This document shows, piece by piece, positions 29 through 19,793 of a stretch of 64,000 nucleotides of DNA (the first letter of the stretch is position 1; every line of letters begins with the position of its first letter). Under the pieces are notes generated by a model. The model was given only the letters and a program-made list of their open reading frames with translations. It searched no databases and had not been told where the DNA came from. Origin of the DNA: Patescibacteria group bacterium (GTDB taxonomy: Bacteria; Patescibacteriota; Microgenomatia; UBA1400; PJMF01); NCBI GenBank assembly GCA_045541795.1, contig JAZQJV010000018.1, forward strand, positions 118,236-182,235. The letters are read 5' to 3'. Made by a program: the position numbers and the translations under genes.

Positions 29-56
29 TTGACAAAACAAATATTTCTGGTATAAT
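29..56 (+). promoter_or_regulatory. sigma70-type promoter (TTGACA, 16-nt spacer, TGgTATAAT)
   Basis: TTGACA at 29-34, TG at 48-49, TATAAT at 51-56, read directly. Confidence 0.6.
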
Positions 57-62
57 CAGAGT

Positions 63-354
63 TGTTCTTTGATATTGATTGCCGCTGCCGATTGCATGGC
101 GGTTTGGCGATCCGATAAAGACAAAATCTGGTTTTGCAGGAGGTGGCGGCCAATGATTGTGCGTTTGATGACGACTATGATTACAGATTGGGCGAACATC
201 TAGCTCTCAAAAGAAGTGGGACGACAGATAGGAAAAATGCGCTTTTGGGCAGACTGATGGGCTCTACACTGTCAGTCTAGGAAGCAAAGCTGTACCATTG
301 CAAATTCGGAAATAAGGTTCAATTAGCCCCGGAAATAATCCCGGGGCTTTTTTT
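63..354 (+). ncRNA. candidate orphan transcript (unclassified ncRNA, or carrier of a 16-codon sORF at 153-203)
   Basis: Bracketed by the 29-56 promoter and the 325-354 terminator. The track lists no ORF here. It contains internal hairpins and an AGGAGG-ATG sORF. No family recognised. Confidence 0.3.
325..354 (+). terminator. intrinsic terminator
   Basis: 8-bp stem agccccgg/ccggggct, 7-nt loop, followed by a T7 run. Confidence 0.75.
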
Positions 355-388
355 ACACAGATACAGGCAGGTAAAACACACAGGTTAA

Positions 389-565
389 GTGGGTAAAGAA
401 TTATCTAGTAATCGCACTGAACACGTAATTTATTTGCTTGACGAGCCAACCACTGGTTTGCATTTTGAGGATGTACAGCGATTGCTTTCGATTTTAAGTT
501 CGCTGGTAGGACAAAACTCCAAGTCATGGACAGGTAAGTTTTTGGTCACTGAATTGGCGCGTTAG
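389..565 (+). pseudogene. uvrA: uvrA 3' relic (second ABC domain Walker-B region joined to the extreme C-terminus; most of the gene is missing)
   Basis: Translation is [58 protein letters not shown]. It matches the UvrA pattern ..[23 protein letters not shown]...LL..L..L.. and then the C-terminal S.TG.FL tail. The IEHNLDVIK...GPEGG segment is absent and an in-frame stop lies just upstream at 386-388. Confidence 0.7.
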
Positions 566-600
566 TCGCAGAGAGTAATGTTTAGTTTTTGTGATGAATT

Positions 601-622
601 ACCCCGACCTTACGGTCGGGGT
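601..622 (+). terminator. GC hairpin after the uvrA relic (possible terminator, weak U tract)
   Basis: accccgacc / ggtcggggt stem with a ttac loop. Confidence 0.35.
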
Positions 623-834
623 TATGGACAAATGTGATATGAATTATTTTGAACAATTATGTCTACTCAAAATTATAGTGACTACGCCCAGATTAACCTG
701 ATAACACCTATTGAATATGATCACTATTCAATTAGTTTGTTTAGGTTTTATCAATGTGAAAATTAATAAGTTGCCCAGCACGAGTTTGTTATAATCGGCT
801 TTAGGTTAATAATTTGTCTGGTCACCAGGCATAA

Positions 835-1374
835 GTGCCAACATTATTAACTGGAGGTTATATCACTTTTGCCTGGAAATCCATATGCGACCATCATGAC
901 TATAATCGTATTGATTTGCATGCCTTTAGACTGGACAATAGCTTTACTTATACAGTTTCACTTACAGTCAATTATGACAAGGTTAATCTTTTAGAGAAAC
1001 TGCCAGTCTTACCAAAGTTCGAACAATTATTTATAACTTTCAATCAACCACAAATGCTACTGACCGATACTTTATTGTGGCACGCTGATCGTTGTTACCA
1101 ATTTCAGGGACAAACATTCAATTATGTCCTCATCAGAGCACTGGTAAAAGCCAATGGAGAAATTCCCTGGAACGATCAGCTGCTGCTGATGTATGATCCT
1201 GGTCCTCTTCATCTAAGTAGCTCGAAAATAGATGATAGAAGTACTTTAATTTGTCGTGCTATAGATGACCTTAACTTGGAGCTCAAACAAAAACTTAAAA
1301 TGAATTTTACACCGATACACAGACGTAAAAATAAATTTATTAAATTTGATAAACAAATTATACTATCGACATAG
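835..1374 (+). CDS. hypothetical protein (possible OmpR/CadC-like winged-helix at the C-terminus)
   Basis: 179-aa ORF with a GTG start in the AT-rich region. The stretch ..RSTLICRAIDDLNLELKQKL...FIKF weakly resembles a Trans_reg_C recognition helix and wing. Confidence 0.4.
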   Translation: MPTLLTGGYITFAWKSICDHHDYNRIDLHAFRLDNSFTYTVSLTVNYDKVNLLEKLPVLPKFEQLFITFNQPQMLLTDTLLWHADRCYQFQGQTFNYVLIRALVKANGEIPWNDQLLLMYDPGPLHLSSSKIDDRSTLICRAIDDLNLELKQKLKMNFTPIHRRKNKFIKFDKQIILST

Positions 1375-1469
1375 ACTCACTTAGCTGGAGTTACTCTAGG
1401 CTCAGTTTTTGCTTCTCTGGTAGTTTAATATCCCTGTCTAGAAATTAGTCGAGGCTATTAAACGACCGC

Positions 1470-1679
1470 ATGAGACAGAGCACAATAGTAGTACCAGCTC
1501 GCACCGACATCGGGAAAAAATATCGTACTAGCTACGACCCTATATCAGAGCAGGACGTTCACGATTTTATTGCTGCCGTTAAGGCAGATAGTGGATGGGT
1601 ATTGAAGTTTGATGAGGCAAAACAAACAGCCAATGATTTAATAGAGTTGGCCAAATTAGTCAATAAATATCAGGAATAA
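1470..1679 (+). CDS. hypothetical small protein
   Basis: 69-aa ORF; no recognisable motif. Confidence 0.35.
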   Translation: MRQSTIVVPARTDIGKKYRTSYDPISEQDVHDFIAAVKADSGWVLKFDEAKQTANDLIELAKLVNKYQE

Positions 1680-1735
1680 CTGTCTTAAAAGTCTTGCATT
1701 TTTAATCAATTTGTGATATAAAGACCACATTAATT

Positions 1736-2824
1736 ATGACAAACACAAAAAAGATCCAGACAGTTACTAGTAACGATATGTCGATGTCTAATGATCAAGA
1801 GTATCGGGAATGGTTAGTCGACTTAAAAACAAGATATCAACATAGTCGCATTAAAGCATCTATAAAAATTAATTATGAGGTCATTTTTTATTACTGGTCT
1901 GTTGGTCGTGACATTGTGATTAAAAAAGCCGAATCAAAATGGGGTAGTGGTTTTTATGATAATTTGAGTCGCGATCTACGACGAGAATTACCTGGTATAC
2001 AGGGATTATCAAAAACAAATCTCAAATACATGAAGTACTTTTATGATCTTTTTCCAGATGTGTTTACTGATAAGTCAATTCGTCCACAAGTTGTGGACGA
2101 ATTGGAGCAAATACCTTGGGGACATATCCGATATATTATAGATAAGTGTCGCGGTGATCAACAAAAGGTGATATTTTTCATCAATAAGACCGTGGAAAAC
2201 AACTGGTCGAGAGCAATGCTGCTAAATTTCCTGGATACAGATCTTTACGAGAGGCAAGGGAAGGCGATTACGAATTTTACCAATAAGTTAGCTTCGCCTC
2301 AAGGAGAATTAGCTCAACAGCTTACCAAAGATCCTTACAGTTTTGACTTTCTTACTATGAGAGAAAACTATCAAGAAAAAGAGCTTAAGGATGCCCTGAT
2401 TGCTAATATTGAAAGATTTCTGCTGGAACTTGGCAAAGGTTTTGCTTATATGGGACGGGAATACCGCTTACAAATCGGTGAAACTGAAAAATTTATAGAT
2501 ATGCTCTTTTACAACACTGTCCTGCGTTGTTACGTGGTAGTAGAAGTCAAAGTGGAGAAATTTGAATCCGGACATTTAGGGCAATTGGGATTGTATGTGA
2601 CCGCGGTTAATCATCAGCTCAAAAACGAAACTGACAATCCCACTATCGGTCTGTTGATTTGCAAGAGCAAAGAGAATGTGGTGGCGAAATACTCGCTAGA
2701 AAGCATGGCGGTGCCGATCGGAATATCAGAATATGAGTTGCAAAAAATCTATCCCGCTGATTTCAAGAGTAGTTTGCCAACGATAGAGGAGATAGAGAAT
2801 GAGCTGGCTGATAATAACGATTAG
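1736..2824 (+). CDS. YhcG/DUF1016 family PD-(D/E)xK nuclease (paralog a)
   Basis: KAESKWGSGFYDNLSRDL, PWGHIRYI, FAYMGREYRLQIGE..FIDMLFYN..CYVVVEVK (D..E.K core), PTIGLLIC. A TTGCAT-17-TATAAA promoter lies upstream near 1693-1721. Confidence 0.85.
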   Translation: MTNTKKIQTVTSNDMSMSNDQEYREWLVDLKTRYQHSRIKASIKINYEVIFYYWSVGRDIVIKKAESKWGSGFYDNLSRDLRRELPGIQGLSKTNLKYMKYFYDLFPDVFTDKSIRPQVVDELEQIPWGHIRYIIDKCRGDQQKVIFFINKTVENNWSRAMLLNFLDTDLYERQGKAITNFTNKLASPQGELAQQLTKDPYSFDFLTMRENYQEKELKDALIANIERFLLELGKGFAYMGREYRLQIGETEKFIDMLFYNTVLRCYVVVEVKVEKFESGHLGQLGLYVTAVNHQLKNETDNPTIGLLICKSKENVVAKYSLESMAVPIGISEYELQKIYPADFKSSLPTIEEIENELADNND

Positions 2825-2845
2825 TAAAAATTAAGGTAATAACAT

Positions 2846-4273
2846 ATGTTCACACCTTTTGGCAAGAATCTCGACAATCTAAGTTTTGAAGACATTCAAA
2901 AATTTTGCGATAAAGGTGTTGCTGAAAATATTTATATTGATTACAAGAAAGAAATTAATCAGAAGAATGATCATCTTGCCAAAACTATTGCGTCCTTTGC
3001 TAATACACATGGCGGCTGGATAATAATTGGAGTAGAAGATAAGAATGATCGTCCAAACTCTCCATTTAACGGGATTGACTATACAGATGGAATAGAGTCT
3101 AGTATAACTACTATAATTGTTGACAATATTTATCCATATGTCGAAGTTACATCAAAGGTTATTGTCAACCATGATAATAAAAGAGCTTTTGTTGTAGTGT
3201 ATGTCCCAGAAAGTCATAAAACACCACATTGGATTAACAGCAGAAGGGATCTTTATATTAGAGCTAATACTAGAACAAAAACTGGCAGAGATGATATTAA
3301 GAATAAAAACGAAGACTTGGATATTTACGCCACTTCTGAAAATTGGGAATTCTTAAGAAATAAAAGGGAAAGGTCTCAACAACTGGCAATAGAATTGGAA
3401 ACAGCTTTAAATCGTTTGTTTCTATCATATAAAGATAAAGAAGAACGTTTGTGGTATCAAAATAACGAAAAAGTTAAAAATAATCCGTCGCTGCAAAGTA
3501 TAATATCTGAAGATATGGATACACTCGACTGTGCAGATCCAAGTATCACAACAATTAAAAATAGGCGAGAGTTCAGAAGCGAATGTTATCATGATAACAT
3601 TAGTATTATTGTCCAGCCAGTTTTCCCATCATACGCTATTTCTTCACCGCGTGATTTGAGAGAACACTATTCGTCTAACAGCGGTGCAAACCTCACTAAC
3701 GTTGGTTCACTTGACGAAAACTACAAACTTGATTATTTTCAAAACGGGATAGTAACTTTTTTTACTCCCGACAATAAGACAGGCAACCATTGCGCATTTT
3801 TTGCTCAAGACATCTTTGGTTCGTGCATGGTAAAACACAAGATAGTTCAACACAATCGAAAGAAGATTGATAACTACCAGGGTTATGAAGTGCCGCCAAA
3901 TAGTAACATTATTGACTTTGAATACTTGATAGTTTATATTGAACAATTTTTAAAATATGCATCAGTTTTTTATAAACAAATTGGTTATTTAGGCGAACTT
4001 AGACTTAAGGTGGTCATGAATGTGCCAGAATGGTCATATATGATAATTCATGATTCAACCAAGAATTTTCCGCTTGCATATAGTAATTCTGATAAATATT
4101 TTCTTTGGGAGAAAGTTTTTATTAATGCTGATTTTGTTAACGATCAAGAACGAAATAAAATACTAAATACTATGTATGAAAGTATTGGATTCTTTTTTAA
4201 TTGTGACGAAATTCCTAAACAAATAATTAATAATCTGAGAAAGAATCCAAATAATGCTAATGAGCAACTTTAA
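2846..4273 (+). CDS. AlbA_2 (Schlafen-like, putative DNA-binding) domain protein with an uncharacterised ~330-aa C-terminal region
   Basis: The N-terminus reads ENIYIDYKKEIN...LAKTIASFANTHGGWIIIGVED...FVVVYVPES...YIRANTRT, which fits the AlbA_2 pattern. It starts 21 nt after the DUF1016a stop. Confidence 0.75.
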   Translation: MFTPFGKNLDNLSFEDIQKFCDKGVAENIYIDYKKEINQKNDHLAKTIASFANTHGGWIIIGVEDKNDRPNSPFNGIDYTDGIESSITTIIVDNIYPYVEVTSKVIVNHDNKRAFVVVYVPESHKTPHWINSRRDLYIRANTRTKTGRDDIKNKNEDLDIYATSENWEFLRNKRERSQQLAIELETALNRLFLSYKDKEERLWYQNNEKVKNNPSLQSIISEDMDTLDCADPSITTIKNRREFRSECYHDNISIIVQPVFPSYAISSPRDLREHYSSNSGANLTNVGSLDENYKLDYFQNGIVTFFTPDNKTGNHCAFFAQDIFGSCMVKHKIVQHNRKKIDNYQGYEVPPNSNIIDFEYLIVYIEQFLKYASVFYKQIGYLGELRLKVVMNVPEWSYMIIHDSTKNFPLAYSNSDKYFLWEKVFINADFVNDQERNKILNTMYESIGFFFNCDEIPKQIINNLRKNPNNANEQL

Positions 4274-4297
4274 CTTCCCGTCTCAAAAACTCCCCAA

Positions 4298-4364
4298 TCA
4301 TGCTATAATCAACCTCAAGTAACTGGGTTCGGATTTCCCGCCAGAAACCACCAAAAAATAGGAT
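4298..4364 (+). repeat. promoter-plus-leader repeat, copy 1 (TGcTATAAT 4301-4309; conserved 29-nt core 4324-4352)
   Basis: The core tgggtTcggatttcccgccagaaaccacc differs at one base from the copy at 6859-6887. Both cores lie 14 nt after their -10 box. No ORF follows this copy. Confidence 0.7.
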
Positions 4365-4423
4365 ATTGAAGTACGCAAATTATATCCATATAAAAACGAT
4401 ATTTTAAGCAAATTATTTGGTAT

Positions 4424-5590
4424 TTAATCATTATTGTTAATGTTTAAAAGTAATTGTAATCTTTTCATGATTTCATCGAATGTTATTATTATATTTCTGG
4501 AAACACTCTTTCTGAATAAGTTGAACGATCTTTCTTGTTCTTCAAGAAGTCCTGATTTGTTACCGATAATAATTATTCCTAATGGATCAAGAGCATTCAA
4601 GCGGTTATCTTCATAATCTTTTCCAATAAGAGTTGAAAAATTATCACTCGCAATTCTAATTTGATTTTCTAGTTGAACTATCGCACCACTCAATTCGTCA
4701 GACATGGAATAGCACACATTCTCTCCAACGGCATCTGAATTGCCTCTATATTGATGTCCAATAATGGCACTTTGCGGTGTTTTAATTTCAATAACTGCAA
4801 AGCTTTTATTTGAAAGATTTTGCAAAAGAAAATCAGCGGCGACTCCTCCTTGGCCGTTTCTTCCACGACTGTTCTTTCCTCCTAGATATGTTTCGCCATT
4901 CAAATAACAGACTGGACAATAAAACAAACTCTCAAAAATCCACTGATTTTCTGTGAAGAATGCTTGCCAAAAGTTTTCTTTTTGGTTATTATTCATATTT
5001 TTCGCAATTGTATTAATTGCATTCTGCAATTTGGCTAGTAATATAATATTTTCTAATACTCTGATGTTTCCTTTTCCTAAATCTCTTAACTTGGTAATAA
5101 CCATTTCCTTATTTTTAATATCGCCAATTTGCAATAAAACACTTTCTATATTTCCTTCTCCAATAGATATTGTTGTGGTTCCAAATTTAATACCGTTTTC
5201 ATTTAGAGTCTCTCTAATTAACGGTAAATGCTCAAAGAGATTTTTCATGGCTTCACCATCAAGGTTGAGATCATAAAATTCTCCTTTTCTTAACTTAGTA
5301 ACAGATAGGCCTTTATAACTTTGCCAGTTGTCATTAATTCCTTTTCTTTCCCATCTGAAACCTCCTCGCAATGGTTTGTCAGTTTGAGATGGGTCTACCC
5401 ACTTTGGGTAAAAAAGTAATCTTGTGCTTTCAGTTTCTTTTAGTATAATTGGGGAAATATCAGCGGTTTTATTGGAAGTAGATTTTATTGTTATATCTTT
5501 TGATTCTTTCTGTTTGTCTGTAAATCCCTTGCGAGGTAGCGTGAAATCTATTTCTCCTGAAATATTGCTAAAATCATATTTTGGAGTCAT
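4424..5590 (-). CDS. sduA: Shedu-like DUF4263 (SduA-type) PD-(D/E)xK nuclease
   Basis: The C-terminal half reads NFWQAFFTENQWIFESLF...GVAADFLLQN...FAVIEIKTP...SDELSGAIVQLENQI, which fits the DUF4263 pattern at ~390 aa. The track start is a TTG at 5602. The ATG at 5590 preceded by GAAAG is more likely. Confidence 0.7.
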   Translation of the reverse strand: MTPKYDFSNISGEIDFTLPRKGFTDKQKESKDITIKSTSNKTADISPIILKETESTRLLFYPKWVDPSQTDKPLRGGFRWERKGINDNWQSYKGLSVTKLRKGEFYDLNLDGEAMKNLFEHLPLIRETLNENGIKFGTTTISIGEGNIESVLLQIGDIKNKEMVITKLRDLGKGNIRVLENIILLAKLQNAINTIAKNMNNNQKENFWQAFFTENQWIFESLFYCPVCYLNGETYLGGKNSRGRNGQGGVAADFLLQNLSNKSFAVIEIKTPQSAIIGHQYRGNSDAVGENVCYSMSDELSGAIVQLENQIRIASDNFSTLIGKDYEDNRLNALDPLGIIIIGNKSGLLEEQERSFNLFRKSVSRNIIITFDEIMKRLQLLLNINNND

Positions 5591-5608
5591 GGTGGCTTTC
5601 AATCAAAA

Positions 5609-6736
5609 TTACCTATTTGCTTCTAGCAACTTTTTCTCTATCTCCTCTATCGTCGGCATCGTTCCTTCCACCTTTTGCGGATACAACTTCTCCAGTTCGT
5701 ACTCCGAAATTCCCAATGGTTGATTGCTAGATTCCAAAGCATACTGAGCGATTAAATTATCTTTTTGCTTGCAAATGAGCAAACCGATAGTCGGATTATC
5801 TCGTCCTTCTTTTTGTAAAAGGTGATTGCAAGAAACCACGTAACCGCCAAGTTGCCCCAAATCGGCAAAATCAAATTCGCCAATTTTCACTTCAACCACA
5901 ACGTAACAAGACAACTGTAAATTATAGAAAAGCAAATCAATAAATTTTTCTTTCTCGCCGATTTGCAGTCGATACTCTTTTCCCACATACGCGAAGCCCG
6001 TGCCAAGTTCTAATAAAAATTTGGTTATATTTTCTAGCAGGGCATCTTTTAATTTACGTTCATTGTATTTATCGGTAATACCAGTAAAAGCAAAATTATA
6101 TGGATCTTTTGTTAATTCCTGAGCTAAATCGCTAGTAACATTGGGTAAGGTTTTGCCAAAATTCGTCAATGCTTTTCCTCGTCGATCATAAAGATCGGTT
6201 TCAATAAAATTGAGTAGCATATCTCGGCTCCAACCATTTTCTATTGTTTGGTGAACAAAAAAGAGTGCTTTTTGTGGTTCTGTTTTGAATTTATCAATTA
6301 ACAGCTTATGATGGCCCCACGGAACAGAAAAAATGTCGCTTTCAATTTTCTCAATGACTTGCTGAGTAATTACATTACTTTCTATTTGCTCCCCAACTTG
6401 GGGAGCAATTTCGAAATATTGATGGTAAAGTATATAAAAGTTTTTCATGTACAACAAATTTGTCGGCGAAAAACACGTTGCGTCAGGATTGAGAGTTTTA
6501 AGGTCTCGGCTGAGATTTTTCATGAAACCACTGCTCCATTTACTTTCGGCTTTCATTACCACAATGTCTCTGCCCAAATCATAGTAAAAACGAAGCATTT
6601 CCCGATTAACTTTTACTGCTGCTCTAACTTGGCTCAAGCGATAACGAGAAGAAAGCTTCCCAATCCACGAGGCATAATTTTCATCTAGAATTGTTAGTGA
6701 CTGAACTTGTTTTGCAACCTGTTTTTTCTCTGTCAT
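5609..6736 (-). CDS. YhcG/DUF1016 family PD-(D/E)xK nuclease (paralog b)
   Basis: KAESKWSSGFMKNLSRDL, PWGHHKLL, FAYVGKEYRLQIGE..FIDLLFYN..CYVVVEVK, PTIGLLIC. It is colinear with 1736-2824 over its whole length. Confidence 0.85.
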   Translation of the reverse strand: MTEKKQVAKQVQSLTILDENYASWIGKLSSRYRLSQVRAAVKVNREMLRFYYDLGRDIVVMKAESKWSSGFMKNLSRDLKTLNPDATCFSPTNLLYMKNFYILYHQYFEIAPQVGEQIESNVITQQVIEKIESDIFSVPWGHHKLLIDKFKTEPQKALFFVHQTIENGWSRDMLLNFIETDLYDRRGKALTNFGKTLPNVTSDLAQELTKDPYNFAFTGITDKYNERKLKDALLENITKFLLELGTGFAYVGKEYRLQIGEKEKFIDLLFYNLQLSCYVVVEVKIGEFDFADLGQLGGYVVSCNHLLQKEGRDNPTIGLLICKQKDNLIAQYALESSNQPLGISEYELEKLYPQKVEGTMPTIEEIEKKLLEANR

Positions 6737-6815
6737 AGTGGCTATTACTTATAGCACAATAACGCTATTTTGTCAATACTGATAATTAATTATTATTGGC
6801 ATTTATTTTCAATTC

Positions 6816-6903
6816 TTGCAAAAACAACTTCATACTGTTATAATCAGTTTCAAATAATTGGGTGCGGATTTCCCGCCAGAAACCACCCCAAAAAGATGGG
6901 ATT
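6816..6903 (+). promoter_or_regulatory. promoter-plus-leader repeat, copy 2 (TTGCAA 6816-6821, 17-nt spacer, TGtTATAAT 6836-6844; core 6859-6887)
   Basis: Consensus-like promoter followed by the conserved core tgggtGcggatttcccgccagaaaccacc. Possible helix GGGTG 6860-6864 / CACCC 6884-6888 and inner hairpin GCGG-atttc-CCGC. It precedes the zinc-ribbon/TM2 gene. Confidence 0.6.
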
Positions 6904-6922
6904 ACTGCGATGAAAGTGAAAC

Positions 6923-7256
6923 ATGACAGATGAAAAAACAAAATACTGTAAACATTGCGGTTCGCTTATTGATGTAGAATTGCATAATATGCCCGAAGTG
7001 TGGCAAGCAGGTCGAACAAGTAAAAGCCGAGCTTCCAAATGTAGTGATCAATAACAATAACACCAATTCGAATATAAACTATGCTGGTGCTGTGGGGAGC
7101 GGGCGGCCTATCAATAAGTGGATAGCTTTGGGTTTATGTCTTTTTCTGGGCATATTCGGTGCTCATAAGTTTTATGAAGGAAAGATTGGCATGGGAATAT
7201 TGTATTTGTTTACATTTGGTTTGTTTAGTCTTGGTTGGTTTTTAGATATTTTTTAA
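6923..7256 (+). pseudogene. zinc-ribbon + TM2 domain protein, interrupted by a +1 frameshift
   Basis: Frame A from ATG 6923 gives MTDEKTKYCKHCGSLIDVE... Frame B gives ..CIICPKCGKQVEQVKAELPNVV.. and continues into the 7044-7256 ORF with the TM2 motif (INKWIALGLCLFLGIFGAHKFYEGK). The two CxxC halves of the ribbon therefore sit in different frames, and a TAG at 6975-6977 blocks frame B upstream. Confidence 0.6.
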
Positions 7257-7355
7257 TCCTAACAAAGCCTAATCCTTATTACATATAATACTTTTACATT
7301 TGCGTTTTTATTATAACTACGTTATAATAACACAAACTTTAAGGAAAATATAAAC

Positions 7356-8429
7356 ATGAAAAATCATCGAAAATTCCATCCTCGCATTATTGTCAATATC
7401 ATCTGTCTTTTTTCATTGGCATTATCTCACATTATTTTTTCGCTACCGATTAAAATAATTGATACAGTTTATGCCGTCGAGCGTGAAACTGTCACTGTGA
7501 GCCGTGTGATTGATGGTGATACAATCGTTTTGAATGATGGGCGAAAGGTTAGATATATTGGAATTGATACACCAGAAACAGTTCATCCAACAAAAAATGT
7601 GCAGTGTTTTGGGAAACAAGCCAGTAACAAAAATAGAGAATTAGTCCTTGGTAAAACTGTGGAACTGGAAAAAGATATCAGTGAAACTGATCGCTATGGA
7701 CGTTTACTCAGATATGTATATTTGGATGGCGTCATGATTAATCATAAATTAGTCGCTGAAGGTTATGCCACAACCGTAACCTATCCTCCAGATGTTAAGT
7801 ATAAAGAAGAATTCTCCAAAGCTCAGGCGCAGGCAAGACAAGCAAGACTTGGGCTATGGGGTAATGAATGCAACGAAAGCAGCAGCACTCACGCATCCTC
7901 AAACAACAATGCTAGCTCAAATACAAATAAAATGGATTCGTCAAGCACATCGTCATCATCTCAAAACAACAAAACTCAAAATGACCATGAAGGCAACCAA
8001 GCTTCTACTCAACCAACTAACACTAGCGCACAAAAATGTCCATCAAATTGTAGTGAGGCCAAAAGCATGGGAATGGTTAACATTACACCGTCGCATCCAT
8101 GCTGGCAAGAAAAATTTGATGGCGATAAAGATGGCGTGGGTTGTGAAAGTGACAACCGGTCTACCAATACAAAAACAACTAACAAATCCAATAATGTCAA
8201 TAAACAGACCAGTGCTACGCCGGCACCCACGCCAGTGCCAAGTCGCGCCCCAACGCCAGAACCAACCCCACCGCCTACGTCAGTGCCAGCTCCAGCTGCG
8301 CCAACCCAATCTTGTCCAAATAACTGTACCCAAGCAAAGGCAATGGGAATGGCCAATATGACACCTTCTCATCCTTGTTGGCAATCTAAATTTGACCGAG
8401 ATAAAGACGGTATTGGTTGCGAAGACTAG
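7356..8429 (+). CDS. secreted/anchored thermonuclease (SNase family) with two C-terminal Excalibur Ca-binding domains
   Basis: VIDGDTIVL..GRKVRYIGIDTPE...RYGRLLRYVY...LGLWG, plus two copies of CP.NC..AK.MGM.N.TPSHPCWQ.KFD.DKDG.GCE separated by a PT-rich linker. It has an N-terminal hydrophobic anchor. Confidence 0.85.
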   Translation: MKNHRKFHPRIIVNIICLFSLALSHIIFSLPIKIIDTVYAVERETVTVSRVIDGDTIVLNDGRKVRYIGIDTPETVHPTKNVQCFGKQASNKNRELVLGKTVELEKDISETDRYGRLLRYVYLDGVMINHKLVAEGYATTVTYPPDVKYKEEFSKAQAQARQARLGLWGNECNESSSTHASSNNNASSNTNKMDSSSTSSSSQNNKTQNDHEGNQASTQPTNTSAQKCPSNCSEAKSMGMVNITPSHPCWQEKFDGDKDGVGCESDNRSTNTKTTNKSNNVNKQTSATPAPTPVPSRAPTPEPTPPPTSVPAPAAPTQSCPNNCTQAKAMGMANMTPSHPCWQSKFDRDKDGIGCED

Positions 8430-8438
8430 AAAGTAAAA

Positions 8439-9119
8439 ATGTCACAAAAAGATAATAGCAAACATTCTTGCAGAATAATCATGGCCGCATTGCTAGTGCT
8501 TCTAAGCATTGCATTGCTGCATAAATCTTTTTTTGCTGCCGCCTTCACTATCTGCTACGCATATCTCATCTCGCCACTATCAATTCAATTGGTAAGTAAA
8601 ATATGTAAGAAAGAAAATGAGAAATGGCTATATTCAACCATGACTTTTATTTTTGCTCTTTGCTGGATGACCACAATTCAAACTGGTCAGCCACAAATGG
8701 ATAATGTGTTAACGCAAAATAGTGAAAAAAACGCATCGCTAGAGAATGCGTCAACACAAAATAATGAAAAAATCGCTTCACTAGAAAAAGAGCTCCAATC
8801 AGTTAAGAACGAAAGAGATGAAATTCAAGCAAACAACCAAAAAAGAGCCATTTCAGCTGCCAAATCATATTTGGAATACAGTCCAATGTCGAGCCGAGAG
8901 TTGATTAAGCAACTCGAGTTAGAAGAATTTTCTCATGAAGACGCAGCATACGGTGTAGAGCATGCTGATATCAATTGGAACGATCAAGCATCACGGTCAG
9001 CAGTCCTCTTTATTGAGTTTGCTAATCCGTCAACCGAAGAATTAAAAAAACAACTTGAGTACGAAGGTTTCACAAGCAACGAAATAAAATTCGCCATTGA
9101 GCATAATAGTAATGGGTAA
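8439..9119 (+). CDS. membrane protein with two Ltp-type (host cell surface-exposed lipoprotein) repeats
   Basis: AISAAKSYLEYSPMSSRELIKQLELEEFSHEDAAYGVEH and ASRSAVLFIEFANPSTEELKKQLEYEGFTSNEIKFAIEH fit the Ltp repeat pattern. It also has N-terminal TM segments and a short coiled-coil repeat. Confidence 0.7.
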   Translation: MSQKDNSKHSCRIIMAALLVLLSIALLHKSFFAAAFTICYAYLISPLSIQLVSKICKKENEKWLYSTMTFIFALCWMTTIQTGQPQMDNVLTQNSEKNASLENASTQNNEKIASLEKELQSVKNERDEIQANNQKRAISAAKSYLEYSPMSSRELIKQLELEEFSHEDAAYGVEHADINWNDQASRSAVLFIEFANPSTEELKKQLEYEGFTSNEIKFAIEHNSNG

Positions 9120-9148
9120 ATGACTCTATTGCTTCCAGTAAGGAAAGT

Positions 9149-9490
9149 ATGCCATCTACCAAAAGTTACCTTAATCACCTTCTAACTCAATTCTCGCAGT
9201 TGGATGATATTTCTTACCGCTCGATGATGGGGGAGTATATCATTTATTTCAAAGGCAAAGTAGTAGGTGGAATTTATGATGATCGATTTTTGGTCAAGAC
9301 AACAAAATCTGCACTCGCGTTGATGCCAAACACAAGCAAAGAATTACCATATCCCGGTGCGAAAGAAATGTTGTTGGTAGACGATACGGGAGACAAAGTA
9401 TTTTTACGCGAGCTGCTGACCGCGATATATGAGGAGCTGTCAGTGGTAAAGAAAAAAGAAAGCACATTAAAACGTTTATTAACGAATTGA
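9149..9490 (+). CDS. TfoX N-terminal domain protein
   Basis: L..L..L..ISYRSMMGEYIIYFKGKVVGGIYDDRFLVK fits the TfoX_N pattern. Confidence 0.65.
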   Translation: MPSTKSYLNHLLTQFSQLDDISYRSMMGEYIIYFKGKVVGGIYDDRFLVKTTKSALALMPNTSKELPYPGAKEMLLVDDTGDKVFLRELLTAIYEELSVVKKKESTLKRLLTN

Positions 9491-9502
9491 CATTCATTGT
9501 CC

Positions 9503-10165
9503 TCATCTTTGACGTCTCGCTCTCTCCATATACTCTCTTTGCACCCGCATAAATAATTCCTTATCTGCCAAAAGCGTCCGGATCTCATTTAAAAAACGCT
9601 CGTACTCCGGATCAGAAAAAAAGTATTTCGCATAGCCGCCCTCACCAAATTTTTCTTTCAGGTGTTGCCAACTTCTCACAAACAATTGCTCGTCACTAAA
9701 ATCCGGATGTAAATTTTTACCATACACAAAACTTCGATACAAACAATCTTCTACGCTCGTATTTCTGTCCGCCGTGGACACAATTTTCCCGTACACGCTC
9801 CGGGGCTCGTGATTGCTTGAAGCACGATGATCTTCGATTGCCTCTTTAATCAGTTTTAATTGTTTACCGCTAAAAAAATCAGGCAAATGCTTATCCTCAC
9901 TCATCATCCGCGCAGAAATAATCTCATGCTTGGCTGGATCAATGTGATGTCCCAGATCATGATAAGCAGCCACAGTGTAGACAATGTCTAAGTTAACGTC
10001 GGTCAGTTTTTGCGCCAAGTTAATACTTCTTTCAATGACATATTTAATGTGTTTTAAATTATGAGCTGGCTCATTTTGAGCGTACTGCGGGAAAACATTT
10101 TGCTGGATGTATGTTTGTAATTTTCTATTGACGGTAGGATAAAAATTATTTTCTAACATAAACAT
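9503..10165 (-). CDS. HD-domain phosphohydrolase
   Basis: AAYHDLGHHID and STADR motifs. The start is moved to the ATG at 10165, which lies 6 nt after a TATAAT box (plus-strand 10172-10177), so the gene is probably leaderless. Confidence 0.75.
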   Translation of the reverse strand: MFMLENNFYPTVNRKLQTYIQQNVFPQYAQNEPAHNLKHIKYVIERSINLAQKLTDVNLDIVYTVAAYHDLGHHIDPAKHEIISARMMSEDKHLPDFFSGKQLKLIKEAIEDHRASSNHEPRSVYGKIVSTADRNTSVEDCLYRSFVYGKNLHPDFSDEQLFVRSWQHLKEKFGEGGYAKYFFSDPEYERFLNEIRTLLADKELFMRVQREYMERARRQR

Positions 10166-12024: not shown

Positions 12025-14049
12025 ATGAAGTTGAAGTTTTGGGTTTTGAGTTTGGCAGCAGTGTTGTGTTTCCCCGCTCTTGCGTCTGGTGCGAGCATCG
12101 AACAGATCTTGGCTAGCATGAGTACTAGCGATAAGATCTGTCAGCTCCTGATCCCAGCCTACCGCAAGACGGCCAGTAATGACGCCACTGTCTTAAGCAG
12201 CGACGCGGCGGCACTCATCAGTCAGTATCCTTTTGGTGGTTTTATCGTTTACGGCGAAAATCTTGTCGACAATGACGCCGGCGTCCGGTTCATCCATGAC
12301 GTCCAACGTGCTAATATCAGCGCTGATACCGGCCGGCCGCAATTGCTCGTAATGACCGATCAGGAAGGAGGCCTAGTCTATAGGCTTACTCACGGCACAA
12401 GCGGCATCTCGCCGATGGCTATGGGTGCGGCTAGAGACAGCACTGCCACTCAGACGATCGCCAAAATCCTAGGCACTGAAGTGTCGGCCCTCGGCATTAA
12501 TTGTAACCTCGCTCCAGTACTCGACGTCGTCACCAATCCGCGCGGTTATATCGGCCTGCGGGGTTTCGGCATTGATCCGCAGCTGGTAGCCGATCAAGCC
12601 AGTAGCTATCTGCGCGGCCTGCGGGAGGCGGGTGTCCTAGGGGCAGTCAAACATTTCCCCGGCACAGGCAGCGCTCAGGAAAACACAGATGGGGCCAATT
12701 TGCCCGTCGTCATTAGTAAGACCCTTGAAGAGCTAGAGTCTTGCGATCTCATTCCTTTCCGCCAGGTGATCAAGCAGGGCCTGGTAGACATCGTGATGGT
12801 TTGCAATGACAGTTTTTCAAGTATAGAAACGCGCCAATTTACCGGCTCTGACGGCCAGCAATATGCCCTCCCTGCTTCAGTTTCCCCGGCGATTATCAAT
12901 GACCTGCTGCGCTGTGGGCTCGGCTTTGACGGCCTGGTGCTCACTGATGCACTCTTGGGCACAGTCATGGCCGCACAGTTTAGTGCCGTGCAAGTCTTAG
13001 AGTTGGCTTTGCAGGCAGGCGCCGACATGATGCCGTACGCTTTAGACCTCAACTCAGTCGCGAGTGTGGCGGCATTCCAGCAGGCCCTGGAGACTTTCAC
13101 TGCACGGGTGGACGCGGATCAACAATTGCAAGGTCTACTAGACACTGCTGTCAGGAGGATTTTGACGTTTAAAAGTCGCCATGAACTCCTGACTCCGTAT
13201 GCTCGCTCAGATTCTTGGGCGGCTAGTCAGGCACAGACGGTACTCCAGAATGTCAGCAACCAGGCTCATCACGACCTCCAGTGGCCGGTTGCTTTGAGTG
13301 CGGTCACGCTGGTGGAAAACCGTAATCAGGCTTTGCCGCTTAGCGGTGATGAGAGAGTGGCCATCCTCTATTATTACGCTAGTCAGGAAGCATCAGTGCA
13401 ACTTGCTCTTGACCGGCTTGTAGCTGACGGTCAGCTGACAAGCAGCCAGGCGGCAGACGTCCTTAATCTAGACGTCCACGACGAAAACTTAAGCGAACTG
13501 CTCACCGGCGTGGACACCGTAGTCATTTTAAGCTCTGTCTATTATGAATCGGAGTTGAGCCCAGATTCTCCCTCTCCTTACAGCGACGAAATCAGTATCG
13601 TGCTGCCACTCCTGTCAGAACTCGCTGGTCGTGGAGTCAAAATCATTCACGCCAGTTGTCATCTTCCTTACGACATCGGGCTGTATCTGGGGCGAGTGGA
13701 TGCCATCCTGGCTTGCTATTTGGCCAACGGGATCTCCCTTCCTATCACCACACCAGATAATCAGCCTCGTTACGGCGTTATGGTACCGGCACTCGTTTAC
13801 AAGCTTTTTGATCAGCGGGGAGATTTTTCCGCCCGACTGCCCGTAGACATTTACACTATTAATGGCGGGCAGTATCAGCTAGACGATGTCCTTTTGTCTC
13901 GCGGCTGGGGTCTGACACTGGCTGGTGACGTCATCACTGATCCGGTAGCGACTCACCAGAGCTCTAGCGGCGGCTGTAATGCTTTGTCGGGATTGTGGCT
14001 GTGGACGGGCATTCTTGTTTTCGCCTCTAGCAAAAAGTACCACTGCTGA
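12025..14049 (+). CDS. glycoside hydrolase family 3 (NagZ-like beta-hexosaminidase/glucosidase), secreted
   Basis: MTDQEGG and KHFPGTGS motifs. AAGGAGG lies 7 nt before the ATG at 12025 and a signal peptide MKLKFWVLSLAAVLCFPALASGA follows. The track start at 11950 is probably an upstream extension. Confidence 0.8.
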   Translation: MKLKFWVLSLAAVLCFPALASGASIEQILASMSTSDKICQLLIPAYRKTASNDATVLSSDAAALISQYPFGGFIVYGENLVDNDAGVRFIHDVQRANISADTGRPQLLVMTDQEGGLVYRLTHGTSGISPMAMGAARDSTATQTIAKILGTEVSALGINCNLAPVLDVVTNPRGYIGLRGFGIDPQLVADQASSYLRGLREAGVLGAVKHFPGTGSAQENTDGANLPVVISKTLEELESCDLIPFRQVIKQGLVDIVMVCNDSFSSIETRQFTGSDGQQYALPASVSPAIINDLLRCGLGFDGLVLTDALLGTVMAAQFSAVQVLELALQAGADMMPYALDLNSVASVAAFQQALETFTARVDADQQLQGLLDTAVRRILTFKSRHELLTPYARSDSWAASQAQTVLQNVSNQAHHDLQWPVALSAVTLVENRNQALPLSGDERVAILYYYASQEASVQLALDRLVADGQLTSSQAADVLNLDVHDENLSELLTGVDTVVILSSVYYESELSPDSPSPYSDEISIVLPLLSELAGRGVKIIHASCHLPYDIGLYLGRVDAILACYLANGISLPITTPDNQPRYGVMVPALVYKLFDQRGDFSARLPVDIYTINGGQYQLDDVLLSRGWGLTLAGDVITDPVATHQSSSGGCNALSGLWLWTGILVFASSKKYHC

Positions 14050-14088
14050 TTTCACCAGTCTAGCCAAACTAGACATCTTGTCAATCGC

Positions 14089-14112
14089 GCCGCCCTGTAT
14101 AGGGCGGCTTTT
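14089..14112. terminator. bidirectional intrinsic terminator between convergent genes
   Basis: gccgccct / agggcggc stem with a gtat loop, followed by tttt. Confidence 0.65.
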
Positions 14113-14125
14113 ACGGTGTTAATTA

Positions 14126-15724
14126 CTATTTGGCCCCAAGTTTAGCTTCACTAGTGGCTGGTTTTTGCTCCCACAAAATAAACTCTTCTCCCCGCTGCAG
14201 GATTTGATAATTACTCAGCAATGCTGCCGGGAAAAAATAACCTTCATCATCTATCGTATAAGCAGCATACTCATATTCGGGAGCGTATTCATGCTGCATC
14301 TCACTGCTACCGTAGCGTGTTACTATCAGGTCTGGTGTCCGCTTGGCTATCATTTCGATGATCTCACTAAATACTTCTGGCGCCCCGGCGCGTGATAGTG
14401 TTGGCACCATGTAGTAACGCCCAGCATTGACAGCATTTGTCCCGTGGAAAAACGTATACCAACTATACGGATACAAAGCCAAAAGTTTTGGCGCGGGCGC
14501 ATAGCTCATGATGGCCGTCATGACATCTTGTTTTTCGGCGTAGATAAAATCCCTCGTGCTCTGGTAATTACGACTCAAAACAGCTGCTGTCGCCAGCACG
14601 CAGATCACACTATAAGCGGCAAATTCTGGCAAGTGAGGTTGCAAAATTTTCTCGTCCAATACCAATATTAGCATCAGCGCCAAAATCCCCATCACCCAAA
14701 ACCAATCATAAAAATGCCCGAAAACACCGTTAAAAACGATCCCGCCAACCAACAATGAGATCAGCAACACTTTAAACTGTACCGGGCACTTTTTCAAAGT
14801 TAAAAATAGCACGCTCACGAGTAAGTACACGAGCGACCAGGTGTGATTGGCTGGCAAATTCCACATCAAAGCCAATTGCTCCATGATTTTGAGGATTTTA
14901 GCCACCAAACTACCACCGGCTTGATTACCATAAGCACGAAAGGGAAGAAGAAAATAATGATAAATCAAATCAGCCCAAGCTCCATGAACGGTATACCAGG
15001 CAGCAACCAACAAACACACGCCCAAAAAACCGCCACCAAAGCCGGCCCAGAGCCTTATTTGGTCGCCCGCGCGCCGCTTAGAAATCCAGCCTAGGTAACC
15101 CAGTGTCACCAAAAAAATCCCAATATCTGTGTACTTACACCAAAAAACAACTCCAGCTAGCAAGCCCAAAATGACACTAGCTACCAATTTAGACTTGCTA
15201 GGCAATTTGGTCCAGTTTTGCGCCAGGAGCACACATCCCAAAGTGCATGTTAAAAGCAAACTCCCGATCGAACCCAAAGCGGGTGCAATCGGCTGTGGCG
15301 GTAGACCTAGATATACCAATACTGTGGCTAAAAGCGCCAGAACCAGCCGATATTTTTCTTGTACCCGCACTGACACTAAAATTTGGTGCAGCAAAAAGAA
15401 ATTGACTAAAGCGAGACTGCATTGCACCAAAAACATCCCCCGGAAGACATCACCAGGGTAAAGCAGACCTATAAGACCCCACCAATACATCCATATCGGG
15501 CCTTTCATGTCAAAAAAGTCCCGGTGTGGGAGCTCTCCACGCCGGATAAAATCACTATAAGTAGCGTAAATGCCAAAATCATCACCCAGACCAAAAACTG
15601 ACTGCAACGGCGAGAAAGGACTGGCAAGCGTCACCACGCCTAAAATAGCAAAGCAAGTAATGAAAATACCGAAACACAGCCGAAATTTTGTGTTTTCTTG
15701 CCAATAAGTAATTAGTTTGTGCAT
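14126..15724 (-). CDS. polytopic membrane protein, probable GT-C fold glycosyltransferase
   Basis: More than 10 predicted TM stretches, with an acidic loop DDFGIYATYSDF after TM1. The start is moved to the ATG at 15724 (MHKLITYW), 7 nt after TGaTATAAT on the minus strand. Confidence 0.5.
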   Translation of the reverse strand: MHKLITYWQENTKFRLCFGIFITCFAILGVVTLASPFSPLQSVFGLGDDFGIYATYSDFIRRGELPHRDFFDMKGPIWMYWWGLIGLLYPGDVFRGMFLVQCSLALVNFFLLHQILVSVRVQEKYRLVLALLATVLVYLGLPPQPIAPALGSIGSLLLTCTLGCVLLAQNWTKLPSKSKLVASVILGLLAGVVFWCKYTDIGIFLVTLGYLGWISKRRAGDQIRLWAGFGGGFLGVCLLVAAWYTVHGAWADLIYHYFLLPFRAYGNQAGGSLVAKILKIMEQLALMWNLPANHTWSLVYLLVSVLFLTLKKCPVQFKVLLISLLVGGIVFNGVFGHFYDWFWVMGILALMLILVLDEKILQPHLPEFAAYSVICVLATAAVLSRNYQSTRDFIYAEKQDVMTAIMSYAPAPKLLALYPYSWYTFFHGTNAVNAGRYYMVPTLSRAGAPEVFSEIIEMIAKRTPDLIVTRYGSSEMQHEYAPEYEYAAYTIDDEGYFFPAALLSNYQILQRGEEFILWEQKPATSEAKLGAK

Positions 15725-15817
15725 ATTTGCTATTATATCATACCAAGTATTCTTCACGCTTAGCAATTAGCGCTCGCTTCAAACTACCCAAGATAGTCGC
15801 TTTCGCCCGGTTGGGTC

Positions 15818-15845
15818 TTGACAAATAGCGATTTTATGGTATAAT
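15818..15845 (+). promoter_or_regulatory. consensus promoter of infA (TTGACA, 16 nt, TGgTATAAT), leaderless geometry
   Basis: TTGACA 15818-15823 and TATAAT 15840-15845. The ATG at 15852 is only 6 nt downstream. Confidence 0.65.
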
Positions 15846-15851
15846 AAGAAT

Positions 15852-16175
15852 ATGGGTAAGGTACAAGCACATAAAAGAGCAGAAAAAGCCAAAAGACAGG
15901 TGAATTTTCAGCTGGATAAAGTCAAGAATCCAGACATGTTTGAATTTGAAGGCATTGTGGAGGACTGTCTGCCCAATACCAGTTTCCGCCTTAGCGTCAC
16001 CAGTTCCTCGCTCGAACCGCTTGTAGGTAAAAAACTGCTGGCGACACTAGCCGGCAAAATGCGCCTCTACCGCATCCGGGTGATGCCCGGTGATCAGGTC
16101 AAAGGATATGTGTCAAAATATGATCTAACTAAGGCAAAAATCACCTATAGATCCACAAAAAAGACTTCGGCGTAA
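15852..16175 (+). CDS. infA: translation initiation factor IF-1 with a ~35-aa basic N-terminal extension
   Basis: FEGIVEDCLPNTSFRLSV...GKMRLYRIRVMPGDQVKGYVSKYDLTKAKITYR matches the IF-1 S1-like core. Confidence 0.85.
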   Translation: MGKVQAHKRAEKAKRQVNFQLDKVKNPDMFEFEGIVEDCLPNTSFRLSVTSSSLEPLVGKKLLATLAGKMRLYRIRVMPGDQVKGYVSKYDLTKAKITYRSTKKTSA

Positions 16176-16245
16176 ATTGGATGTACATTCTTGATAAATT
16201 GTGATATAATAGCGATTCTTAACAGGGAAAAAATGAGAAAGAAAA

Positions 16246-16359
16246 ATGAAAGTCAGATCGTCAGTTAAACCACTCTGCAATAAGTGTAAAGTAGTCAAGC
16301 GTCGTGGCGTCGTGCGTGTAGTCTGCACGAATCCAAAACACAAACAAAGACAAGGTTAA
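16246..16359 (+). CDS. rpmJ: 50S ribosomal protein L36
   Basis: Not in the track (37 aa). Translation is [37 protein letters not shown], translated by hand. Confidence 0.9.
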
Positions 16360-16367
16360 AGGTCAAT

Positions 16368-16778
16368 ATGTTGCGCATTTCAGGTGTTGATATCCCAGAA
16401 CAAAAGAAAGTGGCGTTTGCCCTCAGATACATTCATGGTGTCGGTCCTAAAGTGGCCGCAGACGTGATTCATCGCTCTAATATTGATGAAAACAAGCGCG
16501 CTCGTGATCTGACCTCAGAAGAGATCGGCCGTATCCAGACTGTATTAGAACAATATGTAATCGAGGGTGACCTCAAGCGCAAAGTAGCTGACGACATCGA
16601 CCGGCTCAAACGTATCCGTTCTTATCGCGGTTTACGGCATATCGCTGGCTTGCCGGTACGCGGACAACGTACCCGCACCAATTCTCGCTCAGTGCGCGGC
16701 AATAAGCGGACTACTATCGGTTCCATGACTAAGGAAATGGCGGCTAAACTGGAGGAAGCCAAAAATAAAAAAGGCTAA
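16368..16778 (+). CDS. rpsM: 30S ribosomal protein S13
   Basis: MLRISGVDIPEQKKVAFALRYIHGVG..; conserved operon position. Confidence 0.95.
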   Translation: MLRISGVDIPEQKKVAFALRYIHGVGPKVAADVIHRSNIDENKRARDLTSEEIGRIQTVLEQYVIEGDLKRKVADDIDRLKRIRSYRGLRHIAGLPVRGQRTRTNSRSVRGNKRTTIGSMTKEMAAKLEEAKNKKG

Positions 16779-16784
16779 TAGACT

Positions 16785-17186
16785 ATGAGAAAAAACCACA
16801 ATAATCGTCGTAATTTTAAGAAGAAAAGCAACAGAGTCGTTTCTAAAGGCCGGTTGTATGTGAGCGCTACCTTTAATAGTACCTTGGCCACCGTCACCGA
16901 CGAAAAAGGCAATGCGCTTTGCTGGTCATCCACTGGTGAATCTGGATTTTCTGGCGGTCGCAAATCTACACCTTTTGCCGCCACTGTCGCCGTGGAAAAC
17001 GCGCTCAATAAATCTAAGGCTTTTGGCATGAATGAAATTGATGTCTACATCAAAGGCATCGGCCCGGGGCGTGATGTCGTGCTCAATGTGCTGCGCGCCT
17101 CCAAAATGAAAGTAGGCATGATCGTGGACCGCACTCCTATTCCGCACAACGGTACTCGTTCACGCAAGGCAAAACATAATCGCTAA
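16785..17186 (+). CDS. rpsK: 30S ribosomal protein S11
   Basis: GRLYVSATFNSTLATVTDEKGNALCWSSTG..GFSGGRKSTPFAA. Confidence 0.95.
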   Translation: MRKNHNNRRNFKKKSNRVVSKGRLYVSATFNSTLATVTDEKGNALCWSSTGESGFSGGRKSTPFAATVAVENALNKSKAFGMNEIDVYIKGIGPGRDVVLNVLRASKMKVGMIVDRTPIPHNGTRSRKAKHNR

Positions 17187-17197
17187 GGAATACTAAT

Positions 17198-17806
17198 ATG
17201 TCAAGATATACCGGACCAAAAACAAGAATTTCTCGCAAATTTAATGAAGACTTGTCGCTCAAGACAAATGCAGCTAAGACGGCACGCCGTCTCATGCAAG
17301 CTCCTGGTCAGCATGGTGCCAAAATGCGCCGCAAGCTCTCCCAGTACGGCATGCAGCTCAAAGAAAAGCAAAAAGTCAAAGCCATTTATGGTGTCAGCGA
17401 GAAGCAACTCGTACGTCTTTATAAGGAAGCTGCCAGCAAGCAGACCAATACGGGTATGACTTTGCTTTCATACTTAGAGCGCCGTCTCGATAATGTGATT
17501 TATCGCGCTGGTTTCGCTCCTACTCGTGCTGCCGCCAGACAGATAGTCAATCATGCTCACATCTGTGTCAATGGTCGTAAGCTAGATATTCCTTCATATA
17601 GAGTACAGGTGGGTGACGTGGTGACTATTGCTCCACGCTCCAATAAAATCAAAATTATCGCTGAAGCGATCAAAAATAGTGAAGTTCCTGAAATGGAATG
17701 GCTACAGGTCAAGGCTGGAGCAATCAAGATTGCTAGCTTGCCCAAGCGCGAAAACACCATGGAAAATATTGAAGAGCAGCTAATTGTGGAGTTCTATTCT
17801 CGATAG
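17198..17806 (+). CDS. rpsD: 30S ribosomal protein S4
   Basis: MSRYTGPKTRISRKF...YGMQLKEKQK..LERRLDNVIYR.. Confidence 0.95.
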   Translation: MSRYTGPKTRISRKFNEDLSLKTNAAKTARRLMQAPGQHGAKMRRKLSQYGMQLKEKQKVKAIYGVSEKQLVRLYKEAASKQTNTGMTLLSYLERRLDNVIYRAGFAPTRAAARQIVNHAHICVNGRKLDIPSYRVQVGDVVTIAPRSNKIKIIAEAIKNSEVPEMEWLQVKAGAIKIASLPKRENTMENIEEQLIVEFYSR

Positions 17807-17818
17807 AGGGGAGTGTGT

Positions 17819-18772: not shown

Positions 18773-18774
18773 TT

Positions 18775-19353: not shown

Positions 19354-19355
19354 CT

Positions 19356-19787
19356 ATGCAAATCAGACATCAAAAAACGACAACGCTTAAACAAAAACAA
19401 GTGAAAAGAAATTGGCACTTGCTTGACGGCGATAATAAAGTCTTAGGACAGTTAGCCACTCAAATTGTGGAGTTACTTATGGGTAAACAAAAACCCACTT
19501 ATACTCCTAATATTGACGATGGCGACTACGTGGTGGTGGTGAATGCCTCAAACGTGGTCGTTACCGGCAACAAAGCTGATAAGAAAATCTACACTCACCA
19601 CTCCAATTATCCTGGGGGGCTAGTTAGCGAGAGCTTCCGCTCTTTGCAATCTCGTGACCCGGAGGCGGTTATCCGCTTGGCTGTCAAACGGATGCTACCA
19701 GATAACAAATTGCGCGACGTCCGCTTGGGACGGCTCAAGGTTTTTCCGGGATCGGAGCATTCTTATCAGAATTTTATAAAGGAATAA
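19356..19787 (+). CDS. rplM: 50S ribosomal protein L13
   Basis: W.LLDGDNKVLGQLATQIVELLMGKQKPTYTP..D.GDYVVVVNA. Confidence 0.9.
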   Translation: MQIRHQKTTTLKQKQVKRNWHLLDGDNKVLGQLATQIVELLMGKQKPTYTPNIDDGDYVVVVNASNVVVTGNKADKKIYTHHSNYPGGLVSESFRSLQSRDPEAVIRLAVKRMLPDNKLRDVRLGRLKVFPGSEHSYQNFIKE

Positions 19788-19793
19788 AAGCGT

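Follow-up and report, generated by a model that had tools for sequence, protein, structure and literature searches.

An orphan promoter-to-terminator unit beside a uvrA relic at a deletion breakpoint in a Patescibacteria genome

A promoter and an intrinsic terminator at positions 29-354 of the DNA analysed here (64 kb, referred to throughout as the window) enclose a stretch with no long open reading frame (ORF) and end at the breakpoint of a uvrA gene that is decaying by deletion. The unit is tentatively interpreted as an orphaned promoter/terminator pair at a deletion scar, which would give rise to an incidental terminated transcript. It is an ordinary kind of feature, either an orphan transcription unit or an unclassified small RNA (sRNA) candidate. 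The preliminary description had presented it as a candidate non-coding RNA or a short ORF (sORF) of 16 codons; the present analysis neither establishes nor excludes that reading, a remnant being somewhat the likelier in view of the surroundings. The coordinates of all features are collected in Table 1.

Table 1. Features of the unit and of the adjoining uvrA relic, in window coordinates
Feature	Position	Strand	Description
Sigma-70-type promoter	29-56	+	-35 element TTGACA at 29-34, 16-nt spacer, extended -10 element TGgTATAAT at 48-56
Predicted primary transcript	62-354	+	About 290 nt; putative start 5-8 nt after the -10 element, putative end in the T-run
Predicted 5' stem-loop	77-112	+	Minimum-free-energy fold; outer helix extends to 62-124
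Longest open stretch	119-280	+	53 codons in the frame of the uvrA relic; stop at 278-280, 45 nt before the terminator
Candidate sORF with Shine-Dalgarno (SD) sequence	138-203	+	AGGAGG at 138-143, 9-nt spacer, 16 codons at 153-203, MIVRLMTTMITDWANI
Predicted hairpin	251-278	+	10 pairs, 251-260 / 269-278
Intrinsic terminator	325-354	+	8-pair stem (7 G-C), 8-nt loop, T7; -15.2 kcal/mol
Breakpoint zone	355-388	+	Remains of uvrA codons in scrambled order (..QVK..); poor alignment to GESQRVKLAKELS, which is intact in another strain
uvrA relic	389-565	+	Last ~100 UvrA codons: profile positions 840-880 plus the C-terminus
G+C-rich hairpin	598-625	+	12 pairs, 33 nt after the uvrA stop codon, no T-run

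Transcription signals

The promoter, previously described as near-consensus, was borne out, scoring 12 of 12 against the sigma-70 consensus in addition to its TG extension. Seven promoters with this perfect score were found in the 64-kb window, against about 0.02 expected from chance arithmetic over both strands and three spacer lengths, and alignment of all seven, including that of the unit, yielded the common extended consensus C-TTGACAAA ... TG-TATAAT. Five of the six others lie directly 5' of gene starts (infA, the nusA operon, a pilin-like gene, a ThiF-like gene and the gene at 61831), several of these genes being leaderless, while the sixth (57971) has only a 31-codon ORF in front of it. 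Perfect promoters are therefore ordinary in this genome, and finding one intact is no sign of a special RNA gene.

Clean terminators consisting of a hairpin and a T-run are rare in the window, and that of the unit is among the three best on the plus strand; the two comparable ones mark operon ends, at 20341 (after rpsI) and at 35743 (after the gene ending at 35684). Its arms are AGCCCCGG (325-332) and CCGGGGCT (341-348), followed by the T-run to 354, so that the stem and T-run of the preliminary description stand, with the end of the stem corrected from 347 to 348. Real genes of this genome carry promoters and terminators of the same kind, and transcription of the unit, running from about nt 62 to nt 352 or so as judged from these signals, is therefore probable. 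The earlier view of a self-contained promoter-to-terminator unit without a long ORF was thus upheld, with about 270-290 nt between the signals. The G+C content of the unit (0.44) is nearer to that of the core genome (0.47-0.48) than to that of the neighbouring defence island (0.36).

Very short leaders, or none, are the rule for most genes in the window, and the leaderless infA, the ATP-dependent ligase gene and a 546-residue ORF have their ATG 6-7 nt after the -10 element. Many genes look leaderless in this way, a consensus -10 element, often TG-extended, ending 6-10 nt before the ATG; sites of this type lie at window 15818-15852, 20360-20392, 15724-15760 (minus strand) and 28850-28883, and belong to these three genes and to the gene at 28881. 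A promoter cassette of about 40 nt, CTCTTGACAAATGACCCATAATGTG[A/G]TATAATA, occurs in near-identical form at window 57957-58000 and 61684-61727, with short ORFs of 31 and 27 codons, respectively, within 8-10 nt. The copy at 57957-58000 has a minus-strand gene on either side, and an RNA made from it would therefore run antisense to the gene at 58050-59090.

The uvrA relic and the breakpoint

The preliminary description had placed a uvrA relic beside the unit, at the edge of an accessory island, and the profile match of the relic and the defence genes that follow agree with this. The relic matches the NCBIfam profile TIGR00630 at positions 840-880 (E = 3e-12); its lesions are a 45-codon in-frame internal deletion and a stop at 386-388, and the first ~830 codons of uvrA are not present ahead of it. 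The last T of the terminator is at 354, and uvrA codons can be recognised again by about 368-389, which places the unit at most 13 nt from the breakpoint and, accordingly, in the position of the missing uvrA body. Within the breakpoint zone an imperfect internal duplication (ACACAG..ACAGGCAGGTAAAA / CACACAGGTTAAG) was observed, which may be a trace of the repair that brought unit and relic together. The G+C-rich hairpin downstream of the relic may likewise be a former uvrA terminator or a recombination site.

No UvrA similarity was detected in the interior of the unit (62-324), the only uvrA match in NCBIfam being at 389-511. A tblastn search with the UvrA C-terminus matched only 389-520, and a Smith-Waterman alignment of the interior with the UvrA N-terminus scored no better than shuffles, the UvrA query in both cases being an approximate sequence. 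Motifs picked out by eye in the frame of the relic (I..R..R.H, R..LV, AFD..Y, RLG..SG..R), considered as traces of a decayed uvrA inside the unit, were dismissed as noise on the combined evidence of the NCBIfam, tblastn and Smith-Waterman results.

Comparison with other strains

Same-species contigs were reached by exact-protein look-ups. One of them (L001) is 98.4% identical to window 14003-27804, and a second (L004), with 95.5% identity, parts from the window leftward of position 9528, within the 3' end of an HD-domain gene. A third contig, L005, follows window 387-466 at 96% identity and then jumps to 1694-4345 at 94%. It lacks window 467-1693 (1.2 kb), a segment flanked in the window by copies of TTGCATTTT at 458-466 and 1695-1703, whereas contig L013 (120-180) has the undeleted arrangement; the arrangement in L005 is thus attributed to a deletion between the 9-nt microhomologous copies. 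This deletion fuses the uvrA fragment in frame to a DUF1016 gene (L005, 1-140), and the fusion has been called as a 407-residue product.

On its left side L005 retains GESQRVKLAKELSS, an intact UvrA signature region, where the window has the scrambled ..RQVKHTG*VGKELSS. Since L005 keeps leftward uvrA sequence that is absent from the window, uvrA was inactivated independently in the two strains. The L005 contig ends at about window 368, 14 nt past the T-run of the unit, so that the comparison stops short of the unit itself. In contig L012 a Nif11-like/DUF1016 cassette lies in a different context, with an internal deletion and with the unit absent, and in a related genome (L006; GCA_017431625.1) synteny is absent upstream of the ribosomal operon and nothing matches the unit. 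As far as the aligned sequences tell, the locus decays mainly by deletion, with little decay by point mutation. The relic is 96% identical to L005 and keeps an open frame, so that intact signals would be expected in the unit even if it were under no selection.

Origin of the unit

These observations favour, tentatively, an origin as an orphaned promoter/terminator pair. Deletions in this strain would have removed the first ~830 uvrA codons together with whatever lay upstream, and would have either brought a promoter and a terminator together or stranded a small unit, leaving about 270 nt of patchwork non-coding sequence in between. RNA polymerase would then start near nt 62, make an RNA of about 290 nt and stop at the T-run, the terminator shielding the uvrA relic and the genes of the defence island from the promoter, and the RNA would have no selected function. 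Beyond what was observed, namely the signals, the breakpoint, the independent deletions and the lack of homologues, we infer that the unit is transcribed, that it originated as a remnant and that it lacks function.

That the unit ends at a rearrangement breakpoint of a locus decaying by deletion had been missed in the preliminary description, and it makes a remnant more likely. The position at the breakpoint, the dominance of deletion in the decay and the lack of any positive mark of function all point the same way, as do the patchwork open frames, which are expected of a fragment joined by deletion. Against these stand the two signals, both flawless and ordered and oriented as in a real gene, as well as the interior frames, which have no homologue and so give no positive sign of past coding. 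The plus strand also folds better than the minus strand, and the G+C content is core-like and not island-like. Deletion-scar remnants of reduced host-associated genomes share with this locus an adjoining pseudogene (here uvrA), decay dominated by deletion and strain-specific junctions; the interior of the unit differs in not being assignable to any known gene. If the unit is a remnant it calls for caution, in that a promoter-terminator pair without an ORF would here be insufficient to call an RNA gene. The locus in addition shows the loss of uvrA by independent deletions in co-existing strains, beside a rapidly reshuffled defence island.

RNA families, homologues and predicted fold

A possible but doubtful alternative is that the unit is a lineage-specific, independently transcribed sRNA gene, the native upstream neighbour of uvrA, which survived the deletion because it is useful. 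The transcript of about 290 nt would comprise the 5' stem-loop, a central domain and the terminator hairpin, and would be a regulator that acts in trans or binds protein. What characterises a generic bacterial sRNA gene, its own promoter and a Rho-independent terminator around a non-coding stretch, was found in the unit. The likeness extends to the consensus match of the promoter, to the approximately 290 nt without a credible ORF and to the G+C-rich hairpin with its U-run, and the unit differs in having no family or homologues found, an ordinary fold and a location on a deletion scar.

The view that the unit belongs to no known RNA family agreed with a search of 40-330 against Rfam, in which no match was obtained at E<=10. 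A scan of the whole window at the Rfam gathering thresholds returned a tRNA-Glu as its sole match, and a permissive scan of 1-1000 gave terminator-driven noise far below the gathering scores, the best match (Hrs1; 26 bits against a threshold of 56) being on the wrong strand and aligned to the terminator only. Several resemblances were considered and set aside: an SRP-like GGAAGCA motif at 279-287 was accompanied by no SRP match even at E<=10; the five GGA motifs, by our own count, are about the chance expectation and do not amount to a CsrB/Rsm-like enrichment; and a type III toxin-antitoxin system (ToxI-like) was rejected because tandem repeats are absent and the downstream ORF at 835-1374 has no Pfam or PADLOC match. 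A search for tandem repeats in the unit found none, and no paralogue of the unit occurs within the window.

A blastn search of 1-600 against phages and plasmids found nothing. An exact 22-mer gave no true match in the JGI metagenome contigs (241 M metagenome records), the sole match (L003) being a chance one inside a permease gene of a high-G+C organism, and neither an exact 26-mer in the GTDB representative genomes nor three exact 21-22-mers in IMG/VR matched anything. These scans of collections used exact 21-26-mers and are of correspondingly limited reach, and the same-species contigs end before the unit (L005) or have other contexts (L004, L012 and L013). Within that reach, no homologue came to light for the conservation in relatives whose absence the preliminary description had named as refuting. 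Sequences of the same species, 94-98% identical, are nevertheless part of the metagenome collection, so that the miss is mild evidence against a widespread conserved element. Searches of the unit with nhmmer and blastn against every related locus fetched produced no match. A scan of the representative genomes with the GT87 protein was also empty, from which the lineage appears to be absent from that set, and a literature search for promoters or non-coding RNAs of CPR bacteria returned nothing useful.

The structured non-coding RNA envisaged earlier found no evidence in the predicted fold, its stability being ordinary for the genome. Folded as a whole, the unit has z = -2.9 on the plus strand and -0.7 on the minus strand, most of the former being due to the terminator; for the body without the terminator z was -1.8 with dinucleotide shuffles and -1.66 with mononucleotide shuffles, the latter ranking at the 15th percentile among 84 control windows taken from this genome. 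By this measure the body has an ordinary predicted fold, not beyond chance. The hairpin proposed at 251-257 / 272-278 is present and is lengthened in the predicted fold (Table 1). The proposed long-range complement between 92-99 and 295-303 exists with one bulge, but it is not used as a closing helix in the predicted fold, which instead pairs 127-145 with 293-310 and would thereby place the SD region in a helix.

An sRNA gene would accordingly draw support from the perfect, consensus-matching promoter and a terminator among the strongest of the window, from the lack of a credible ORF or protein homologue, from the core-like G+C content and the better fold of the plus strand over the whole unit, and from a deletion endpoint just past the terminator, as would follow from a need to keep the unit. 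It is opposed by the lack of an Rfam match, the ordinary fold once the terminator is removed, the absence of homologues from the collections scanned and from the same-species and same-genus contigs fetched, and the demonstrable decay of the surrounding DNA. It is rather unlikely, then, that the unit encodes an undescribed sRNA of about 290 nt, possibly with a dual function through a 16-residue peptide, that is restricted to a ruminant-gut lineage of CPR/Patescibacteria. The genomes of CPR/Patescibacteria are tiny and their non-coding repertoire has hardly been explored, and a functional RNA at this locus would be among the very few regulatory RNAs proposed for them.

Open reading frames of the interior

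In keeping with the earlier statement that a long ORF is lacking, none of more than 48 codons was found between the promoter and the terminator. The open frames are patchy, one running through 33-200 and a second through 119-277 and again through 281-385, and no credible start at the transcription start was found in any of them. The stretch 119-277 is borderline coding-like, its codon-usage score of 0.076 ranking among the highest 8% when set against spurious stretches and at the 25th percentile when set against real coding windows; an ORF on the minus strand scores similarly and, as both cannot be coding, the overall verdict from codon usage is ambiguous. Taken whole, the frame 33-200 has codon usage that is not coding-like. 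The open frames of the unit had no match among the protein families of Pfam, NCBIfam, PHROGs and PADLOC, and phmmer searches with the three longest against 1.84 billion representatives returned a single match, to a 1404-residue repeat protein (P0020), which was discarded as an artefact. In the deposited genome annotation no gene is called in the unit or in the uvrA relic.

It is improbable that the unit is a micro-protein gene, consisting either of the 16-codon sORF or of a 44-codon ORF that would begin, nearly leaderless, at TTG 69, with the rest untranslated. The elements on which the sORF was proposed, AGGAGG at 138-143, the ATG at 153 after 9 nt and the stop at 201-203, are all present, the codon usage of the 16 codons is positive, and genes with a short leader or none are frequent in this genome. 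However, the window has 13 instances of GGAGG with an ATG 4-11 nt behind it, 10 of them away from gene starts, so that the combination is not beyond chance, and the sORF was not supported as a gene, such pairs being mostly spurious here and the deposited annotation having no gene at that place. The SD region would moreover be paired with 293-310 in the predicted fold, the frame 33-200 is not coding-like as a whole, and there are no homologues. A TTG start is unusual for a leaderless mRNA, which counts against the ORF from TTG 69.

A type I toxin-antitoxin system would share with the unit a short ORF, an SD sequence predicted to pair with a distant 3' segment, a similar size and a terminator. 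The peptide of 16 residues, with R, D, N and T, however lacks the length and the hydrophobicity of a type I toxin and does not constitute a transmembrane helix; the unit also has no PADLOC or Rfam match and no paralogues, and an antisense promoter is absent, no promoter-like site having been found on the minus strand of 1-400.

Leader-type arrangements

An orphaned cis-acting leader, a riboswitch or attenuator formerly in control of a downstream gene that was deleted together with the uvrA body, has a similarly low probability. Promoter, about 270 nt of untranslated RNA and terminator follow one another in the layout of a transcription attenuator, the segment 293-303 is able to pair with either 92-99 or 131-145, and the deletion starts right after the terminator. 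No known aptamer or leader family was matched, though, and no convincing antiterminator was found, the only complement to the 5' arm of the terminator being one of 5 pairs at 260-264. The sORF has no regulatory codon run, its stop lies 120 nt ahead of the terminator, the leaders of most genes here are very short or missing altogether, and the downstream DUF1016 cassette is found in other contexts without the unit. A leader-peptide attenuator was rejected on the same lack of a codon run and distance of the stop from the terminator, and because no operon follows, only the uvrA relic.

Phage lambda pR'-tR' is a strong promoter that reads into an early terminator and gives a short '6S' transcript until antitermination. 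The unit resembles it in having a strong, constitutive-looking promoter and then a terminator upstream of co-oriented accessory genes, and differs from it in that the island has a promoter-like site of its own (TGtTATAAT at 787-795, ahead of the first island genes) and that the DUF1016 cassette is also present at places lacking the unit. The terminator is moreover separated from the island genes by the uvrA relic, so that the two were not originally adjacent. For these three reasons (the intervening relic, the promoter-like site of the island and the occurrence of the cassette elsewhere without the unit) the unit is unlikely to be a leader of the defence island, and the lambda-like antitermination reading was rejected.

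Defence island and genome surroundings

The defence island extends over approximately 600-9528, with G+C content down to 0.36, and contains two DUF1016/YhcG (PDC-S02) nuclease genes and genes for Schlafen/AlbA_2, Shedu SduA, SNase-Excalibur and an Ltp-like lipoprotein. In L005 (2700-12673) the same Schlafen gene is followed by MazG-like, GIY-YIG, SLFN-g3 helicase and TfoX_N genes, among others. To judge from these gene orders, the island is a mosaic across the window, L005 and L012. Strains differ in the 3' end of the HD-domain gene (window 9503-9528, minus strand, against L004 204-381; 233 against 271 residues), which places the right boundary of the variable region inside that gene.

Directly after the relic lies an ORF at 835-1374 on the plus strand (annotated start at 1057; 106-179 residues). 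Apart from its own record, no homologue of it was found among 5.8 billion clustered proteins, and it had no family match.

Further along the window, two ORFs without a Pfam match, of 1221 and 572 residues, come after a T4SS_pilin-like gene (40090-45725). The core genes also include those for a short IF-2 (480 residues), an ATP-dependent ligase and GT87 and PMT transferases. Together, the T4SS_pilin-like gene, the short IF-2, the ligase and the GT87/PMT genes suggest a CPR/Patescibacteria genome, and close relatives are present in metagenome assemblies of the ruminant-gut type.
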